IMG/VR virus record: IMGVR_UViG_3300029102_000023
Source: a virus
Lineage: Duplodnaviria; Heunggongvirae; Uroviricota; Caudoviricetes
Length of the DNA: 21,745 nt
Direction: 5' to 3' (one strand)
This document shows, piece by piece, positions 1-20,373 of the stretch (positions within the stretch are counted from its first letter, which is position 1; every line of letters begins with the position of its first letter). Position numbers and translations under genes: made by a program. The notes beneath the pieces were generated by a model. It was not told where the DNA came from, ran no database searches, and saw nothing but the letters and a program-made list of their open reading frames with translations.

Positions 1-157
1 GTGTACCGGGTTGAGAAGCGGTGTAAGTGAACTGCAGTTGCCATGTTTTACGGCAGTGAGAGCAGAGATAGCGCTGATGTCCGGCAGTACTTTTACCGTT
101 ACGCACCACGCCTTCAGTAGCTGAGCAGGAGGGACAACTGATGGAGATGGAAGCCAC
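1..157 (-). CDS. insA: IS1 InsA, N-terminal fragment (52 codons, 5' partial at window edge)
   Basis: Minus-strand translation from GTG at 157 gives (M)[51 protein letters not shown], matching the InsA zinc-finger N-terminus; runs off the window start. Confidence 0.75.
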
Positions 158-212
158 GGGAGCACCTCAAAAACACCATCATACACTAAATCAGTAAGTT
201 GGCACCATTACC
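1..212 (-). mobile_element. IS1 insertion sequence, partial (insA-proximal end; remainder lies outside the window)
   Basis: Positions 1-212 match my recollection of the IS1 end including the terminal inverted repeat (ggcaccattacc ending at 212) and the 5' part of insA on the minus strand. Element is cut by the window edge. Confidence 0.8.
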
Positions 213-254
213 CTGAATTGTTGGTTAATACGCTTGAGGGTGAATGCGAATAAT

Positions 255-275
255 AAAAAAGGAGCCTGTAGCTCC
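255..275 (-). terminator. Rho-independent terminator candidate on the leftward transcript
   Basis: Inverted repeat GGAGC(261-265)/GCTCC(271-275) with 5-nt loop; A6 run at 255-260 on plus strand gives a T-run after the hairpin on the minus strand; lies just downstream of the 298-579 gene. Confidence 0.5.
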
Positions 276-297
276 CTGATGATTTTGCTTTTCATGT

Positions 298-579
298 TCA
301 CCGTTCCTTAAAGACGCCGTTTAACATGCCGATCGCCAGGCTTAAATGAGTCGGTGTGAATCCCATCAGCGTTACCGTTTCGCGGTGCTTCTTTAGTACG
401 CTACGGCAAATGTCATCGACGTTTTTATCCGGAAACTGCTGTCTGGCTTTTTTGATTTCAGAATTAGCCTGACGGGCAATGCTGCGAAGGGCGTTTTCTT
501 GCTGAGGTGTCACTGAACAAGCCCCATGTCGGCAAGCATAAGCACACAGAATATGAAGCCCGCTGCCAGAAAAATGCAT
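298..579 (-). CDS. Hypothetical protein, 93 aa (position of lambda b-region small ORFs, orf60a-like position)
   Basis: Intact ORF in the six-frame track, same strand and operon as exo/bet; family not recognised. Confidence 0.5.
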   Translation of the reverse strand: MHFSGSGLHILCAYACRHGACSVTPQQENALRSIARQANSEIKKARQQFPDKNVDDICRSVLKKHRETVTLMGFTPTHLSLAIGMLNGVFKER

Positions 580-589
580 TCAGTGGTTG

Positions 590-781
590 TCATACCTGGT
601 CTCTCTCATCTGCTTCTGCTTTCGCCACCATCATTTCCAGCTTTTGTGAAAGGGATGTGGCTAACGTATGAAATTCTTCGTCTGTTTCTACTGGTATTGG
701 CACAAACCTGACTCCAATTTGAGCAAGGCTATGTGCCATCTCAATACTCGTTCTTAACTCAACAGGAGATGCTTTGTGCAT
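590..781 (-). CDS. Small lambda-type hypothetical protein, 63 aa (orf61/orf63 family by position)
   Basis: [26 protein letters not shown]...; overlaps next ORF by 28 nt as in the lambda orf61/orf63 pair; name assignment from memory and uncertain. Confidence 0.5.
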   Translation of the reverse strand: MHKASPVELRTSIEMAHSLAQIGVRFVPIPVETDEEFHTLATSLSQKLEMMVAKAEADERDQV

Positions 782-942
782 ACCGCCTCCCGTTTATTAT
801 TTATCTTCTCAGCCAGCCGCTGTGCTTTCAGTGGATTTCTGATAACAGAAAGGCCGGGAAATACCCAGCCTCGCTTTGTAACGGAGTAGACGAAAGTGAT
901 CGCGCCTACCCGGATATTATCGTGAGGATGCGTCATCGCCAT
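754..942 (-). CDS. Small lambda-type hypothetical protein, 62 aa (orf63/orf61 family by position)
   Basis: ORF starts 10 nt inside the exo 3' end on the same strand, typical compact lambda arrangement. Confidence 0.5.
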
Positions 943-1613
943 TGCTCCCCAAATACAAAACTAATTTCAGCCAGTGCCTCGTCCATTTTTTCGATGAACT
1001 CCGGCACCATCTCGTCAAAACTCGCCATGTACTTTTCATCCCGCTCAACCACGACATAATGCAGTCCTTCACGCTTCATACGCGGGTCATAGTTGGCAAA
1101 GTACCAGGCATCTTTTCGCGTCACCCACATGCTGTACTGCACCTGGGCCATGTAAGCCGATTTTATGGCCTCGAAACCACCGAGCCGGAACTTCATGAAA
1201 TCCCGGGAGGTAAACGGGCATTTCAGCTCAAGGCCGTTGCCGTCACTGCATAAACCATCGGGAGAGCAGGCGGTGCGCATACTTTCGTCGCGATAGATGA
1301 TCGGGGATTCAGTAACATTCACGCCGGAAGTAAACTCAAACAGGGCTCTGGCGTCGTTCTCGTACTGTTTTCCCCAAGCCAGCGCCTTAGCGTTAACTTC
1401 CGGAGCCACACCGGTGCAAACCTCAGCAAGCAGGGTGTGGAAGTAGGACATTTTCATGTCAGGCCATTTCTTTCCGGAGCGGGGTTTTGCTATCACGTTG
1501 TGAACTTCTGAAGCGGTGATGACGCCGAGCCGTAATTTGTGCCATGCATCATCCCCCTGTTCGACAGCTCTCACGTCGATCCCGGTACGCTGCAGGATAA
1601 TGTCCGGTGTCAT
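933..1613 (-). CDS. exo: Lambda-type 5'-3' exonuclease (Red alpha)
   Basis: 226 aa protein [43 protein letters not shown]... matches lambda Exo over its length as I recall it; 4-nt overlap with bet. Confidence 0.97.
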
Positions 1614-2395
1614 GCTGCCACCTTCTGCTCAGTGGCTTTCTGTTTCAGGAATCCAAGAGCTTTCACTGCTTCGGCCTGTGTCAGTTCTGACGATGCGCGA
1701 ATGTCGCGGCGAAATATCTGGGAACAGAGCGGCAATAAGTCGTCATCCCATGTTTTATCCAGGGCGATCAGCAGAGTGTTAATCTCCTGCATGGTTTCAT
1801 CGTTAACCGGAGTGATGTCGCGTTCCGGCTGACGTTCTGCAGTGTATGCGGTATTTTCGACAATGCGCTCGGCTTCATCCTTGTCATAGATACCAGCAAA
1901 TCCGAAGGCGAGACGGGCACACTGAATCATGGCTTTATGCCGTAACATCCGTTTGGGATGCGACTGCCACGGCCCCGTGATTTCTCTGCCTTCGCGGGTT
2001 TTGAATGGTTCGCGGCGGCATTCATCCATCCACTCGGTAACGCAGATCGGATGATTGCGGTCTTTGCGGTAAATCCGGCATGTACATGATTCATTGTCCT
2101 GCTCAAAGTCCATACCATCAAACTGCTGGTTTTCATTGATGATGCGGGACCAGCCATCAACGCCCACCACCGGAACAATGCCGTTCTGCTTATCAGGGAA
2201 GGCGTAAATTTCTTTCGTCCACGGATTAAGGCCGTACTGGTTGGCGACGATCAACAATGCGATGAACTGCGCATCGCTGGCATCACCTTTAAATGCCGTC
2301 TGGCGAAGAGTGGTGATCAGTTCCTGTGGGTCGACAGAATCCATGCCGACACGTTCAGCCAGCTTCCCTGCCAGCGTTGCGAGTGCTGTACTCAT
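1610..2395 (-). CDS. bet: Lambda-type single-strand annealing protein (Red beta)
   Basis: 261 aa [59 protein letters not shown]... matches lambda Bet. Confidence 0.97.
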
Positions 2396-4086: not shown

Positions 4087-4668
4087 ATGAACAACTCATG
4101 GTGGCAGGAACTAATGCATTTTTTCCTGCAAGGAATGACACTTAAACAGTTGATTCATATGCTAATCATCCTGATCATATTGATTATTGTTATGCCGGTA
4201 AGCGTAAAAGAATGGATAAACCTGCATAGTCCAGAAATCCTTCCTCATTACTGGATGTATTACATCCTGTTGTTTTGCGTTAGCTATGTGCTTAACGGCG
4301 TTGTTAATTCCGCTTATCACGCTGTGACTGAAAGAATTGAGGTATTCGCTGCTCAGAAGCGCAAATCTAAAGAAGAAAAATATGTGCAAGATTTGTTTGA
4401 TTCGTTAACTCTTGGAGAAAGAGCGTATTTGGCATTCGCTGTAGCCGCTAATAACCAGCTACAAACGGAAAAGGGCGCTCATGAATCAATTTCATTGCTC
4501 AAAAAAGGACTCCTCGTTCGAAGGCCTCCTGCTGTTGGATATCCTGATACCGACCGTTTCGTTATCCCTGAAAGCTATAGACATGAGTGCTACATTAGGT
4601 TTGCCGGGAAGGCAGACAGCCTTATGGATGAACTTATCGCTCAGGATAAGCATGGCAAAAACAAGTAA
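4087..4668 (+). CDS. sieB: Superinfection exclusion protein B (membrane protein)
   Basis: 193 aa with hydrophobic N-terminal segments (LIHMLIILIILIIVMPV, YWMYYILLFCVSYVLNGVV); matches lambda SieB; antisense to the pL operon and convergent with N as in lambda. Confidence 0.9.
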   Translation: MNNSWWQELMHFFLQGMTLKQLIHMLIILIILIIVMPVSVKEWINLHSPEILPHYWMYYILLFCVSYVLNGVVNSAYHAVTERIEVFAAQKRKSKEEKYVQDLFDSLTLGERAYLAFAVAANNQLQTEKGAHESISLLKKGLLVRRPPAVGYPDTDRFVIPESYRHECYIRFAGKADSLMDELIAQDKHGKNK

Positions 4669-4684
4669 TTAGCAAATGAATTTA

Positions 4685-4957
4685 TCATCTCGCCGTCAGT
4701 TGTTTTGATTTCCGGTAGCCTGCCGCGTAAAGAGCTACGTTCGGAAGACAAGTTGAACCTTCATATTTTCTGGTCAACGTTGTCAGAGTTATCACTTCTG
4801 CTCTCATTGCTGGTTTGAGCTTGCATTGCAAGACCACTCGTGAAGGGGTTGGCCTGTGTAGCTTGTCGGAGCTGATCGCCTCCTGACTTTGCAGATTTGC
4901 GCGACGAGCTCTACGGCGAGAAGCTGCGGTGCCTTTAAATTCTGTTTTTCTGGACAT
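4685..4957 (-). CDS. N: N-type transcription antiterminator (non-lambda specificity), 90 aa
   Basis: Position directly downstream of the nutL/pL candidates; arginine-rich motif near the N-terminus (KGTAASRRRARRANLQ); strong GGGAGG Shine-Dalgarno 5 nt before ATG at 4957. The track ORF extends to 5029 but that start lacks an RBS. Confidence 0.6.
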   Translation of the reverse strand: MSRKTEFKGTAASRRRARRANLQSQEAISSDKLHRPTPSRVVLQCKLKPAMRAEVITLTTLTRKYEGSTCLPNVALYAAGYRKSKQLTAR

Positions 4958-5055
4958 GGATTCCTCCCGAATAAACTTTGGCGATGCAATCTCGAAGCTC
5001 CTCCTGAGACGGTTGCTTCGGCATTGCATCCCACAGCTTATGTGGTTGGGTGATC

Positions 5056-5100
5056 TGGCTTTTCAGCCACGTAGTCGAGAGTCGACGTTGTTTAAAGAGC
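5056..5100 (-). promoter_or_regulatory. nutL candidate (boxA GCTCTTTAA plus boxB hairpin TGGCTGAAAAGCCA) on the leftward transcript
   Basis: Minus-strand reading gives GCTCTTTAA...cgactacgt-GGCTGAAAAGCC, nearly parallel to the nutR candidate at 7737-7782 (GCTCTTTG...cctacgt-CGCTGAAAAGCG). Both lie immediately downstream of the divergent early promoters. Confidence 0.5.
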
Positions 5101-5148
5101 CTGCCAGTCTGTTCCATTTGGCTTCCAGCGTCCTGCTGACGGTTAAAT

Positions 5149-5190
5149 AGTACGATATGTACTTTACAAGATCAATACAATTTGTTGTAA
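5149..5190. promoter_or_regulatory. OL/pL region candidate: dyad symmetries AGTACGATATGTACT and TTACAA-N15-TTGTAA
   Basis: Imperfect palindromes upstream of nutL/N; the AGTAC...GTACT motif recurs in the cI-cro intergenic region (AAGTACATATTGTAT). Exact operator boundaries and the -35/-10 elements are not resolved. Confidence 0.35.
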
Positions 5191-5361
5191 GTTGGCGTGG
5201 TTTTTTATAACGCTTTGTATTTAATAGTGTTGTTTTTTAGCGTGGATGTATTGCCTCGGCGATGTAAGGAGAGATCAGAATTGCGTGGTTTAGTGGGTTG
5301 CATCTATTTATTTTTCAATAAATATAATTGGTTATGTGTTTTTAGGTGGGCGAACGTGAGG

Positions 5362-5388
5362 CAAAGAAAACCCGGCGCTGAGGCCGGG
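5362..5388 (-). terminator. Rho-independent terminator downstream of the cI-geneA-geneB operon
   Basis: Inverted repeat CCCGGC(5371-5376)/GCCGGG(5383-5388) with 6-nt loop; A-rich run 5364-5370 on plus strand gives T-run TTTTCTT after the hairpin on the minus strand; 6 nt beyond the gene B stop. Confidence 0.6.
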
Positions 5389-5393
5389 TTGTA

Positions 5394-6146
5394 TTATGCT
5401 GCAAGTCTCTTAACCCAAGTCTCTCTTTTGGAGAATGGTAGAACTTGGCTTGATTCATGGAAGAGTAAGGAGAGTTGTTGCATTTGATCACCAATTGCTT
5501 CGCTGTCTATAACAACAAATCTGTTGTTATACTCCTCACTTGAAGCTTTAAGATCAATTAGTTTCCCAAGCAATGAGTAAGCACTATTCCAGCTTCCTCC
5601 GTGTTTCACGCTTGATGTAAAAACGTATTTAGGTATGTCGGTTTTTATTGTTACAGGGACGGTAATTTGATGTCCACTCAAGCCATATACGTTTTCACGA
5701 AGAGAAAGTGCGTCTCTAAGCTCTGTGTGATATAGATAATCAATAACCATACTTTCAAACTTTTCAGCTTGAACTGGCTGATACCAGTCTAACGACAAAG
5801 TTGATGCGAGTATACCAGCTCTAATTATGTTCGATGTAATCGCACCGACATCCTTTTCTGTTGCCCAAGCAATGATTTCTCCTCGAGCATTGAGTTCTGC
5901 GCCTTCTTTAAGCAGTAATTGTCGTATCTCATCAAGTCGTTTTTTGGTAAGCGAGATCCCTCTTGCCTCCATATTCATTAAGGCATCGCATCTGTCACTA
6001 ACTAAATACCTACCATTGACTTCACGGATAAAGGCACCGACATGCTCTCCATCATCACAGTAAGTGAATGGACTGATAATTCTCAAGGTCTTGCCTATTG
6101 GATGGCATTCGAAACCTAGTTGTGAGATCACTGTTGAGCACATCAT
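5394..6146 (-). CDS. Unknown protein B, 250 aa (second gene of the two-gene cassette in the rexAB-equivalent position)
   Basis: Long intact ORF; ATG at 6146 overlaps the gene A stop (ATGA), indicating translational coupling; no obvious transmembrane segments; family not recognised. Confidence 0.7.
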   Translation of the reverse strand: MMCSTVISQLGFECHPIGKTLRIISPFTYCDDGEHVGAFIREVNGRYLVSDRCDALMNMEARGISLTKKRLDEIRQLLLKEGAELNARGEIIAWATEKDVGAITSNIIRAGILASTLSLDWYQPVQAEKFESMVIDYLYHTELRDALSLRENVYGLSGHQITVPVTIKTDIPKYVFTSSVKHGGSWNSAYSLLGKLIDLKASSEEYNNRFVVIDSEAIGDQMQQLSLLFHESSQVLPFSKRETWVKRLAA

Positions 6147-6700
6147 ATTCCAAACCCCATTTGCCCCGACTCATCTTCAAGCGGTAAAGGTATTCTCCCA
6201 GAGTAAGTTATGTTCAGATGTTTACAGAAGTAATTCCAATACCCTACCAGGTCATCTGGGTTTATGTCATCTTCGATTGGAAACGCTATTCTATCACTAT
6301 AGTATCCAGCTTCTTCATAGTATACATGGTAGTGAGCACCGTAAATGATATCTTGGTACTTCGGATGATCGACCTTGTAACTATTCGTGTGTTTGTCAAA
6401 GTGATAGGTATCTACCGCGAAAACCCTCTTGTTATGATAGAAAGCAATAATATTTATTTTAGGGTAAGAAATCGGGTCATCAGGTTCTGAATCCTGATCT
6501 GGTTTCCATTTCAGTTCAAACTTTAGCCCTTGTATAGGTATACAATCCTCATCCAAGGGGATGATATGGGCTTGTAGCCACATATCAGAGCGACTTGGTT
6601 TCTGTTTCCATTTAACGCCAGAAAAGTTAACTATTTTTTTACAATAAAGTACTTTATCAACTTCTACTTGGCTTGGCTGATAATCATCTATTTTTGCCAA
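6143..6700 (-). CDS. Unknown protein A, 185 aa (first gene of the cassette downstream of cI)
   Basis: Intact ORF 39 nt downstream of the cI stop on the same strand; acidic, Tyr/His-rich, no hydrophobic segments; the track start at 6700 is a TTG codon (next in-frame ATG is at codon 40), so the true start is uncertain. Confidence 0.65.
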   Translation of the reverse strand: MAKIDDYQPSQVEVDKVLYCKKIVNFSGVKWKQKPSRSDMWLQAHIIPLDEDCIPIQGLKFELKWKPDQDSEPDDPISYPKINIIAFYHNKRVFAVDTYHFDKHTNSYKVDHPKYQDIIYGAHYHVYYEEAGYYSDRIAFPIEDDINPDDLVGYWNYFCKHLNITYSGRIPLPLEDESGQMGFGI

Positions 6701-12999: not shown

Positions 13000-14082
13000 T
13001 TAGAACTGATAAACCAGACCTACAGCGACGATGTCGTCGGTATCAATACCAGCTGTTTTGGTAAACTTACTATCGTCAATTAAGTTGATTTTGTAATCAA
13101 CAAAAGTGGACATGTTTTTATTAAAGTAGTAAGTAGCACCGACATCGACATACTTGACTAAGTCTCGGTCACCATGAACACCAAGGTCTTTACCTTTTGA
13201 CTGAAGGTAAGCAACAGATGGACGCAGACCGAAGTCAAACTGATATTGTGCTACTGCTTCAAAGTTTTGTGCTTTGTTTGCAATATGGTTATTACCAAAA
13301 ACGGTCATATTCTGAGTTTCAGAATATGTGGTAGCCAGATAGATATTGTTCGCATCATATTTCAGGCCTGCAGCCCATACTTCCGCATTTTTGCCGGAGG
13401 CATTGAATTTGCTCTTACCATAGGCGACCTGACCGTCAGTGCGATCTGATTTAGCATAGGTTGCACCCACGCCGAATCCTTCATACTCATAAGTAGTGGA
13501 GAAACCGAAACCATCACCATTGGCTTCAGTTACGTCAGTGCGGTCATTTTTACCCTGATACTGAGCAGCAAAGTTCAGGCCATCGACCAGACCAAAGAAG
13601 TCGTTGTTACGATAAGTTGCAACACCAGTAGTGCGACCAGTCATGAACACATCTGTTTGGGTCCAGGTATCACCACCGAATTCTGGCAGAACGTCAGTCC
13701 ACGCACCGATGTCGTATGCTACACCGTAGTTACGGCCGTAATCGATTGAGCCGTAATCACCAAATTTCAGGCCTGCAAATGCAAGACGGGTTTTGTCTTT
13801 GGAAGAACCTTGAGATTCAGCACGGTTGCCTTTGAATTCATATTCCCACTGACCGAAACCAGTCAGTTGATCGTTGATTTGGGTTTCACCTTTGAAGCCA
13901 AGACGGGCATAAGTAGTATCACCATCATCTGCATCATTAGAGGAGAAGTAGTGCTTGGCATTAACTTTCCCGTATAGATCCAGCTTGTTACTGTCTTTAT
14001 TATAAATTTCAGCTGCCTGAGCAGACATCGCCATCAGTACTGATGCAGCTACAGCAGAAATTGCCACTGTTAATTTTTTCAT
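13000..14082 (-). CDS. nmpC: Outer-membrane general porin (OmpC/OmpF/NmpC family), prophage-encoded, 360 aa precursor
   Basis: Signal peptide [23 protein letters not shown] then [23 protein letters not shown]... and C-terminal ...VAVGLVYQF (terminal Phe, beta-barrel signature); antisense between Q and the lysis genes as in DLP12. Track ORF start at 14142 is an upstream in-frame extension. Confidence 0.93.
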
Positions 14083-14541: not shown

Positions 14542-14670
14542 GAGTCTCGATATTAGCTGATAACCCAATACCTGAGTTATTCACTGACTCCGAATCTGTT
14601 ACGTTTCTGCCTTTATTGCGATACGTAGTATCCCCTTAATTTACACCCGCTTTGTCTGCGAGGTGGGGTT

Positions 14671-15872: not shown

Positions 15873-16166
15873 TTATTGTGAGCAATACACACGCGCTTCC
15901 AGCGGAGTATAAATGCCTAAAGTAATAAAACCGAGCAATCCATTTACGAATGTTTGCTGGGTTTCTGTTTTAACAACATTTTCTGCACCACCACAAATTT
16001 TTGCTGCATCGACAGTTTTCTTCTGCCCAATTCCCGAAACGAAGAAATGATGGGTGATGGTTTCCTTTGGTGTTACTGCTGTAGGTTTGTTTCCAACAGT
16101 AAACGTCTGTTGAGCACATCCTGTAATAAGCATTGCCAGAGCGGCAGAAAACAACATTTTTTTCAT
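15873..16166 (-). CDS. bor: Bor lipoprotein (serum-resistance moron), 97 aa
   Basis: MKKMLFSAALAMLITGCAQQTFTVGNKPTAVTPKETITHHFFVSGIGQKKTVDAAKICGGAENVVKTETQQTFVNGLLGFITLGIYTPLEARVYCSQ; lipobox ITGC; matches lambda Bor. Confidence 0.9.
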   Translation of the reverse strand: MKKMLFSAALAMLITGCAQQTFTVGNKPTAVTPKETITHHFFVSGIGQKKTVDAAKICGGAENVVKTETQQTFVNGLLGFITLGIYTPLEARVYCSQ

Positions 16167-17924: not shown

Positions 17925-18473
17925 ATGAAGGTTAATAAAAAGAGGCTTGCCGAAATTTTCAACGTGGACCCGCGGACGATTGAACGCTGGCAGTCTCAGG
18001 GACTCCCTTGCGCCTCCAAAGGTAGTAAGGGCATTGAATCTGTATTTGATACTGCCATGGCAATTCAGTGGTATGCGCAGAGGGAAACTGATATCGAAAA
18101 CGAAAAGCTCCGCAAAGAACTGGACGATTTGCGTGCGGCAGCGGAGTCAGATTTACAACCCGGCACCATTGACTATGAACGCTACCGGCTCACAAAAGCG
18201 CAGGCAGATGCGCAGGAACTGAAAAATGCCCGTGAAGACGGAGTAGTGCTGGAAACTGAACTGTTTACCTTCATTCTGCAACGTGTGGCACAGGAGATTT
18301 CGGGGATACTTGTGCGTGTGCCGTTGACATTACAGCGTAAATATCCGGACATTTCACCATCACACCTTGATGTGGTGAAAACTGAAATCGCGAAAGCCTC
18401 CAATGTTGCAGCTAAGGCCGGTGAAAACGTGGGCGGGTGGATCGATGATTTCAGACGCGCAGAAGGCAGCTAA
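17925..18473 (+). CDS. nu1: Terminase small subunit Nu1
   Basis: 182 aa [65 protein letters not shown]... clearly homologous to lambda Nu1 (N-terminal winged HTH). Confidence 0.92.
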
Positions 18474-20373
18474 TGCAGCCGGTGCGATAGCTACAGGGCT
18501 TTTATCTCTCATTATTCCTGTTCCACTGACGACAGTTCAGTGGGCCAATAAACATTATTACCTTCCTAAAGAGTCGTCTTATACCCCGGGGCGATGGGAA
18601 ACACTGCCGTTTCAGGTTGGCATCATGAACTGTATGGGCAACGATCTGATTCGCACGGTTAACCTGATTAAATCTGCCCGTGTTGGTTATACAAAGATGT
18701 TGCTGGGAGTGGAGGCTTATTTTATTGAGCATAAATCACGCAACAGCCTTCTTTTTCAGCCCACGGACTCAGCTGCTGAAGATTTTATGAAATCTCATGT
18801 TGAGCCAACGATAAGGGATGTTCCTGCATTGCTGGAGCTGGCTCCATGGTTCGGAAGAAAACACCGCGATAATACGCTCACCCTGAAGCGTTTTTCCTCC
18901 GGTGTGGGGTTCTGGTGTCTGGGTGGTGCGGCAGCAAAAAACTACCGTGAAAAATCCGTGGATGTGGTCTGTTATGACGAGCTTTCCTCGTTCGAACCGG
19001 ATGTTGAAAAAGAGGGTTCGCCAACCCTGCTGGGGGATAAACGTATTGAGGGCTCTGTATGGTCAAAATCCATTCGCGGCTCGACGCCTAAAATCAAAGG
19101 CTCCTGCCAGATCGAAAAAGCCGCTAACGAGTCGGCACACTTCATGCGTTTTTATGTGCCCTGTCCGCACTGTGGGGAGGAGCAGTATCTGAAATTTGGC
19201 GATGATGCCTCGCCTTTCGGTCTTAAGTGGGAGAAGAATAAGCCAGAAAGTGTTTTCTACCTTTGTGAGCATCATGGCTGTGTGATCCATCAGTCTGAGC
19301 TTGACCAGAGTAACGGGCGGTGGATCTGTGAAAACACGGGCATGTGGACCCGTGACGGCCTGATGTTTTTCAGCGCCCGGGGTGATGAAATTCCGCCGCC
19401 GCGCTCCATCACTTTCCATATCTGGACGGCGTACAGTCCGTTCACCACCTGGGTACAGATTGTCTATGACTGGCTGGATGCACTGAAAGATCCCAACGGC
19501 CTGAAAACCTTTGTGAACACCACGCTGGGCGAGACCTGGGAAGAGGCTGTGGGCGAAAAACTCGATCACCAGGTGCTGATGGATAAGGTTGTGCGTTACA
19601 CGGCGGCGGTGCCTGCCCGGGTGGTTTATCTGACGGCGGGCATTGACTCGCAGCGAAACCGTTTTGAGATGTATGTCTGGGGATGGGCTCCGGGAGAGGA
19701 AGCCTTTCTGGTGGATAAAATCATCATTATGGGGCGTCCCGATGAGGAAGAGACGCTGTTACGTGTGGATGTGGCGATCAACAAAAAATACCGCCATGCA
19801 GACGGAACCGAAATGACCATTTCCCGTGTCTGCTGGGACACCGGGGGGATCGATGGCGAAATTGTCTATCAGAGGTCAAAAAAACACGGTGTTTTCCGGG
19901 TGCTGCCGGTAAAAGGTGCATCTGTTTATGGCAAGCCGGTGATCACCATGCCAAAAACCCGCAATCAGCGGGGCGTGTATCTGTGCGAAGTGGGGACGGA
20001 CACCGCAAAAGAAATTCTCTATGCCCGTATGAAAGCCGATCCCACGCCTGCGGATGAAGCCACGTCGTATGCCATCCGTTTTCCTGATGATCCGGAGATT
20101 TTTTCGCAGACAGAGGCGCAGCAACTGGTCGCGGAAGAGCTTGTGGAGAAGTGGGAAAAAGGAAAGATGCGTCTGCTGTGGGATAACAAAAAGCGGCGTA
20201 ACGAAGCGCTGGACTGCCTGGTGTATGCCTACGCGGCATTACGTGTGTCCGTGCAACGCTGGCAGCTTGATCTGGCTGTACTGGCAAAATCCCGGGAAGA
20301 AGAGACGACCCGGCCAACCCTTAAAGAACTGGCAGCGAAGCTGTCCGGAGGAGTGAATGGTTACAGTCGCTGA
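18445..20373 (+). CDS. A: Terminase large subunit A (ATPase/nuclease)
   Basis: About 642 aa homologous to lambda gpA throughout ([25 protein letters not shown]..., [42 protein letters not shown]); ATG at 18445 overlaps the nu1 3' end as in lambda; the track start at 18403 is an upstream extension. Confidence 0.95.

Follow-up and report, generated by a model that had tools for sequence, protein, structure and literature searches.

The first 212 positions of the window (the whole stretch of DNA analysed here, 21,745 nucleotides in length) are confirmed as the IRL end of an IS1 element, which is joined at 212|213 to the DNA of a lambdoid prophage. The insertion site is fixed to the base, in an intergenic spacer at the distal end of the leftward early genes, and a simple IS1 insertion, with an intact left arm of the prophage beyond the element, is probable. 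The idea of a defective prophage, which the initial annotation had put forward alongside that of a plain hop, is unsupported.

IS1 is a 768-bp element that encodes the InsA repressor and, via a -1 frameshift, the InsAB' DDE transposase. The window starts inside such an element, 212 of the 768 bp being visible, and the following features lie on this side of the junction (coordinates, strand, description):

1..212, minus strand: nt 1-212 of IS1 with the left (IRL) end, truncated where the window begins; the isoform is neither IS1A nor IS1F of K-12.
1..157, minus strand: 5' part of insA, with a GTG start at 157-155, 52 codons, running off the window; found through Pfam and NCBIfam matches.
178..205, minus strand: sigma-70-like site GTGCCA-16-TATGAT, in and beside the IRL; found by consensus scan.
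190..212, minus strand: IRL, the 23-bp terminal inverted repeat, GGTAATGGTGCCAACTTACTGAT; 21/23 identical to the IRL of IS1A and 23/23 to that of the UPEC_U013 copy.

Alignment to reference IS1 copies places the reverse complement of window 1-212 on nt 1-212 of IS1, and hence the element on the minus strand. That this segment is an IS1 terminus with the 5' region of insA had been claimed from the letters alone, and the claim is borne out by the IRL, by the match of the encoded peptide to Pfam PF03811 and by an identity of 212/212 with the complete 768-bp IS1 of E. coli UPEC_U013. The alignment to IS1 variants, proposed at the same time as a check, gives 100% for this UPEC_U013 copy, 197/212 (92.9%) for the K-12 copy IS1A and 194/212 (91.5%) for the K-12 copy IS1F. 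Over its full length, the UPEC_U013 copy shares 93.2% identity with IS1A and 95.4% with IS1F, which sets the isoform of the window about 7% apart from the former and 5-8% from the latter. Megablast searches of complete E. coli genomes with window 1-215 returned 100% matches (E = 7e-108) annotated as 'IS1 family transposase', and IS1 matches in 4965 of 5426 genomes, at a median of 10 places per genome.

The features that define an IS1 and fall within the visible part are all present, namely the IRL and an insA with the expected position and domain. The GTG of insA corresponds to IS1 nt 56, a start about 55 nt from the IRL as expected of IS1, and the peptide of 52 residues matches the InsA N-terminal domain (PF03811) with E = 2e-21 and 75.9 bits, for a cut-off of 26.1; it also matches NCBIfam IS1 models (NF050000, E = 6.3e-11). 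The sigma-70-like site at 178..205 presumably occupies the position of the element's own insA promoter (IRL promoter).

The junction was mapped on IS-free loci: the IS ends at the last base of the IRL, and phage sequence begins at the next one, 212|213. Across this point, IS-free relatives read ...TTCATTAATCC|CTGAATTGTTGG... (in longer form, ...CCGCCATCTTTCATTAATCC|CTGAATTGTTGGTTAATACGC...), and the empty site is present in three independent IS-free loci, those of UPEC_U013, ABU 83972 and lambda. An overlap between the IS end and phage sequence, suggested by alignment starts of 206 or 211 in BLAST, was rejected, the partial resemblance of CATTACC to (C)ATTAATCC being fortuitous. On the phage side, the features close to the junction and the early genes beyond them are:

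213..221, no strand: the 9 bases of phage sequence next to the IS, CTGAATTGT; expected to be the target-site duplication in the case of a simple insertion, with one flank visible.
277-259 (stem) and 258-249 (T-run), minus strand: hairpin resembling an intrinsic terminator, after the orf61-like gene; found by scan and fold.
298..579, minus strand: orf61-like ORF, 93 aa from an ATG at 579 (71 aa from a GTG at 513 according to PGAP); the last gene on the pL side before the IS.
850-872, minus strand: second, stronger terminator-like hairpin, with 9 pairs (6 G-C), in the orf60a-like gene (754-942) and about 60 nt downstream of exo.
cIII, kil, gam, bet, exo, orf60a, orf63 and orf61, minus strand: leftward early genes, identified by synteny with lambda.

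The insertion point falls in a 98-bp AT-rich spacer between the stop codon of the orf61-like gene, 85 bp away, and the ATG of a TraR/DksA-type zinc-finger gene, 13 bp away, which encodes a TraR/DksA-family product of 73 aa; the insertion is intergenic, with no annotated gene interrupted by IS1. The GC content is 30% within 10 bp on either side of the site and 37-42% within 20 to 50 bp, compared with 47% for the window, and this local AT-richness fits the reported preference of IS1 for AT-rich targets, in which 8-9-bp duplications are made (PMC5009759). The lambda counterpart of the insertion point is 30626|30627, between ea22 and orf61. The position of the IS on the int-proximal side of the early-left genes, as initially described, is upheld by this correspondence, and so is, to within a few bases, its location just past a minus-strand terminator: the latter had been placed at 255-275, and the hairpin was found at 277-259. 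The insA gene reads leftward on the minus strand, in the same direction as the leftward phage early genes defined by synteny with lambda. A small ORF that crosses the junction (191-301, minus strand, 36 aa) was discarded as a gene, because the terminator hairpin falls within it and its sequence departs from lambda in the final residues alone.

The hairpin at 277-259 is real as a predicted terminator motif. In the consensus scan, it shows 8 pairs, 4 of them G-C, followed by TTTTATTATT, the arrangement of a rho-independent terminator; it appears in both the MFE and the centroid folds, with a fold z-score for the 65-nt segment of -1.43, which is not significant alone. It is kept base for base in lambda (about 30673-30691), and the IS1 end lies about 36 nt beyond its T-run. 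The stronger hairpin at 872-850 may correspond to lambda tL3, a terminator situated a short way past exo (lambda about 31.26 kb). That position points to 872-850 rather than to 259-277, and as the literature searched gave no coordinates for tL3, the hairpin at 259-277 is left unnamed.

The orf61-like ORF has no Pfam or NCBIfam match, and a stop codon lies upstream of its ATG at 579 in the window. In the collection searched, 19,682 blocks list a protein identical to the 93-aa product, and some PGAP records name its homologues 'ZapA'. A difference of one extra base in a T-run (window 447-451) puts lambda orf61 (61 aa, L004 3440-3625) in another frame than the widespread 93/71-aa ORF, and the reference gene of lambda seems to be a frameshifted form of it. 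At 30392-30613 (minus strand; L004 2993-3214), lambda also contains a 73-aa ORF unannotated in NC_001416, with a dksA/traR C4 zinc finger (PF01258, E = 1.6e-8), which is orthologous to the TraR/DksA-family gene beside the insertion site in the prophages.

Between the junction and the right end of the window (213-21745), identity to the icd-integrated lambdoid prophage present in CFT073, ABU 83972, UPEC_U013 and many other strains amounts to 99.9%. With only 12 substitutions and no indels relative to ABU 83972 in this part, nothing else is disrupted in the window. Ten of these 12 substitutions fall at 19063-20073, within terL (18445-20373, plus strand), where they cause 4 amino-acid changes, and such a cluster suggests a recombination patch acquired from another lambdoid prophage; no 100% match to the terL/portal segment was found among complete E. 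coli genomes (best 99.7%), and no record matched the exact TerL protein with either plausible start codon. According to the annotation of the 99.9% identical loci, the prophage carries cargo between Q and the lysis/terminase genes, namely an OmpC-family porin (13000-14082, minus strand) and an Iss (Bor-like) serum-survival lipoprotein (about 15873-16166, minus strand), as well as sieB and a DUF1828/hypothetical gene pair near the immunity region. The window yielded no tRNA gene and a single Rfam match at the gathering threshold, the lambda cIII thermoregulator (Lambda_thermo, RF01804; 3004-3062, minus strand, 88.5 bits).

On analysis, a plain hop into non-essential DNA is the preferred explanation. 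In an icd-integrated prophage like those of CFT073 and ABU 83972, IS1 would have entered the AT-rich spacer, at the distal and non-essential end of the leftward early operon. The remaining 556 bp of the element, its IRR and the 9-bp repeat CTGAATTGT would then be located just left of the window, and the prophage would resume beyond the IS with ...TTCATTAATCCCTGAATTGT and the traR-like gene, followed by the ea22-like gene, xis, int and attL at icd. In IS-free relatives, the left arm is ordered as traR-like, ea22-like, small genes, dATP/dGTP pyrophosphohydrolase or DUF550, ASCH, DUF4222, xis, int and icd, with the int end about 4.8 kb from the insertion site. For a simple insertion, the reciprocal junction is expected to read ...CATTAATCCCTGAATTGT|GGTAATGACTCC..., also written 5'-...CCGCCATCTTTCATTAATCCCTGAATTGT|GGTAATGACTCCAACTTA...-3', and, given a 9-bp duplication, the 13 bases in front of the traR-like gene would be preserved, together with ACAATTCAG. 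To reach the traR-like and ea22-like genes, xis and int, leftward phage transcription would need to pass through IS1.

A simple hop is favoured because all the IS1 copies examined in related prophage loci (n = 5: two in NCTC9040, two in 1332KP and one in UPEC_U013) are simple insertions. Each copy is 768 bp long and flanked by direct repeats of 8 or 9 bp (TAAGAATT twice, CCATCAGCG, ATCTACGCC and GTTATTCAC), and int and xis are shown to be retained in the prophages that hold four of the five. The UPEC_U013 copy (NZ_CP058596.1 2917756-2918523; L002 26375-27142), whose transposase is annotated with a 'programmed frameshift', occupies the window-equivalent position 14576-14584, between the ompC-like porin gene and essD, in the same orientation as in the window and with the 9-bp duplication GTTATTCAC. 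As the identical isoform sits elsewhere in the same prophage of UPEC_U013 with a duplication, these sequences indicate that the isoform of the window is demonstrably mobile in the hosts of this prophage. The small number of substitutions that separate the rest of the window from the IS-free prophage also weighs in favour of a simple hop, and so does the excess of IS insertions over IS recombinations in mutation-accumulation lines, 758 vs 98 (PMC5009759). The right end of the window falls at an arbitrary position within the portal gene, in terminase/portal DNA that has a median of 2 places per genome; with both ends in multi-copy DNA, the window is probably an assembly contig broken at repeats, which would explain its start inside IS1.

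An identical 212|213 junction would be produced by an IS1 adjacent deletion ending at 213, or by recombination with another IS1 that deletes or inverts the intervening DNA, and this counts against the simple-insertion reading. Following such a rearrangement, the traR-ea22-xis-int-attL arm would be lost or moved, and the prophage would be cryptic. In its favour, IS1 is multi-copy in most E. coli genomes, IS-IS recombination is a real class of events (98/857; PMC5009759), the window shows nothing left of IS1 nt 212, and related attB(ybhC) prophages with IS1 have decayed, as in NCTC9040, where the prophage at ybhC has a truncated bet and a partial ren, though these truncations are not at IS1 ends. 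No positive evidence points to a rearrangement, however: the five related copies all have intact target duplications, the 21.5 kb that are visible are as intact as in IS-free relatives, and insertions outnumber recombinations by about 8:1 without selection (PMC5009759). A rearrangement is accordingly judged unlikely.

A second alternative is that the junction is an artefact, an IS1 stub misassembled onto phage DNA at a repeat, or that the segment is a short, dead remnant of IS1. Both ends of the window fall in repeated DNA, and the junction is unique to the window among all the collections searched. It has no contiguous match in 5426 complete E. coli genomes and is absent from 50,697 phage records; neither the exact junction of 42 nt nor a relaxed form (CATYACC followed by phage sequence, for any IS1 end) matched GTDB species representatives, IMG/VR gave 0 matches to the exact junction, and JGI metagenomes gave 0 matches to the relaxed form. 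Against an artefact, the break falls exactly at the last IRL base and the phage sequence resumes cleanly, as in a real transposition junction, whereas assemblers normally stop contigs within repeats rather than create joins that are precise to an IS end. In addition, independent insertions of IS1, IS21-family and IS3-family elements within the same few hundred bases indicate that such events are common. An artefact or a dead remnant is thus very unlikely.

The geometry of the insertion, with IS1 in sense orientation and placed between the early operon read leftward and the xis/int module, lends itself to two functional scenarios: the element could form a polar block that lowers Xis/Int on induction, so that the prophage is locked in as a step to domestication, or SOS-induced read-through into the IRL could drive a burst of transposase and couple IS1 hopping to induction. 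Both scenarios are very improbable, this geometry being the one thing in the sequence that speaks for them. IS1 is polar, and classical work indicates that N-modified (antiterminated) polymerase reads through IS polarity, so that a strong effect on excision would not be expected.

Simple insertion remains the probable reading, and its implications are modest. The left edge of the window is a repeat boundary rather than the end of the prophage, and the completeness of the prophage (int, xis, attL) is not to be judged from this window. The finding of an IS1 end in a lambdoid prophage is ordinary and already known, and IS insertions in the non-essential int-proximal region are commonplace, as related loci show. 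The spacer and its neighbours have been hit by several IS families in different strains, which is usual for non-essential prophage DNA.

Compared with its closest relatives, the window differs by the occupied site, the prophages of CFT073, ABU 83972 and UPEC_U013 being empty at 212|213. The UPEC_U013 prophage carries the same IS1 isoform 14.4 kb away from this site, and that of CFT073 has an IS3-family insertion instead of IS1. Near the site, NCTC9040 and 1332KP each have an IS1A copy in the orientation seen in the window, at other positions; the NCTC9040 copy (L001 5443-6210) lies inside the orf61-like gene, at the window-equivalent position 361-369, about 150 bp from the site, in the same orientation and with the duplication CCATCAGCG. 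Ten contexts of the 93-aa ORF included none with IS1 at 212|213 and one with an IS21-family element 60 bp away. In GCA_964046605.1 (L014 about 4302-6260), an IS21-family element (IstA/IstB) is inserted between the orf61-like stop codon and the terminator hairpin, and in GCA_014140565.1 and GCA_017357505.1 (L010 2634-3847; L012 2751-3898), IS3-family elements have taken the place of the DUF1382 (orf63) gene or disrupted it. These IS1A, IS21-family and IS3-family landings are independent of one another and lie within a few hundred bp, none of them with the 212|213 junction, and the prophages with such neighbouring insertions have kept int and xis where these are visible.

The likeness to lambda (NC_001416) is close on the right of the junction, with 97% identity to window 206-1700 over 1498 aligned bases and a conserved gene order. 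The exo-bet-gam-kil-cIII block, together with orf60a, orf63 and orf61, is syntenic with that of lambda, and homologues are found in the same order in the loci L002 and L003. The terminator hairpin and the sequence of the site itself, CATTAATCC|CTGAAC..., are conserved in lambda, which differs by the absence of an IS at this site. In contrast, the left arm of the closest prophages, with its icd integrase, DUF4222, ASCH and dATP/dGTP pyrophosphohydrolase genes, is not that of lambda.
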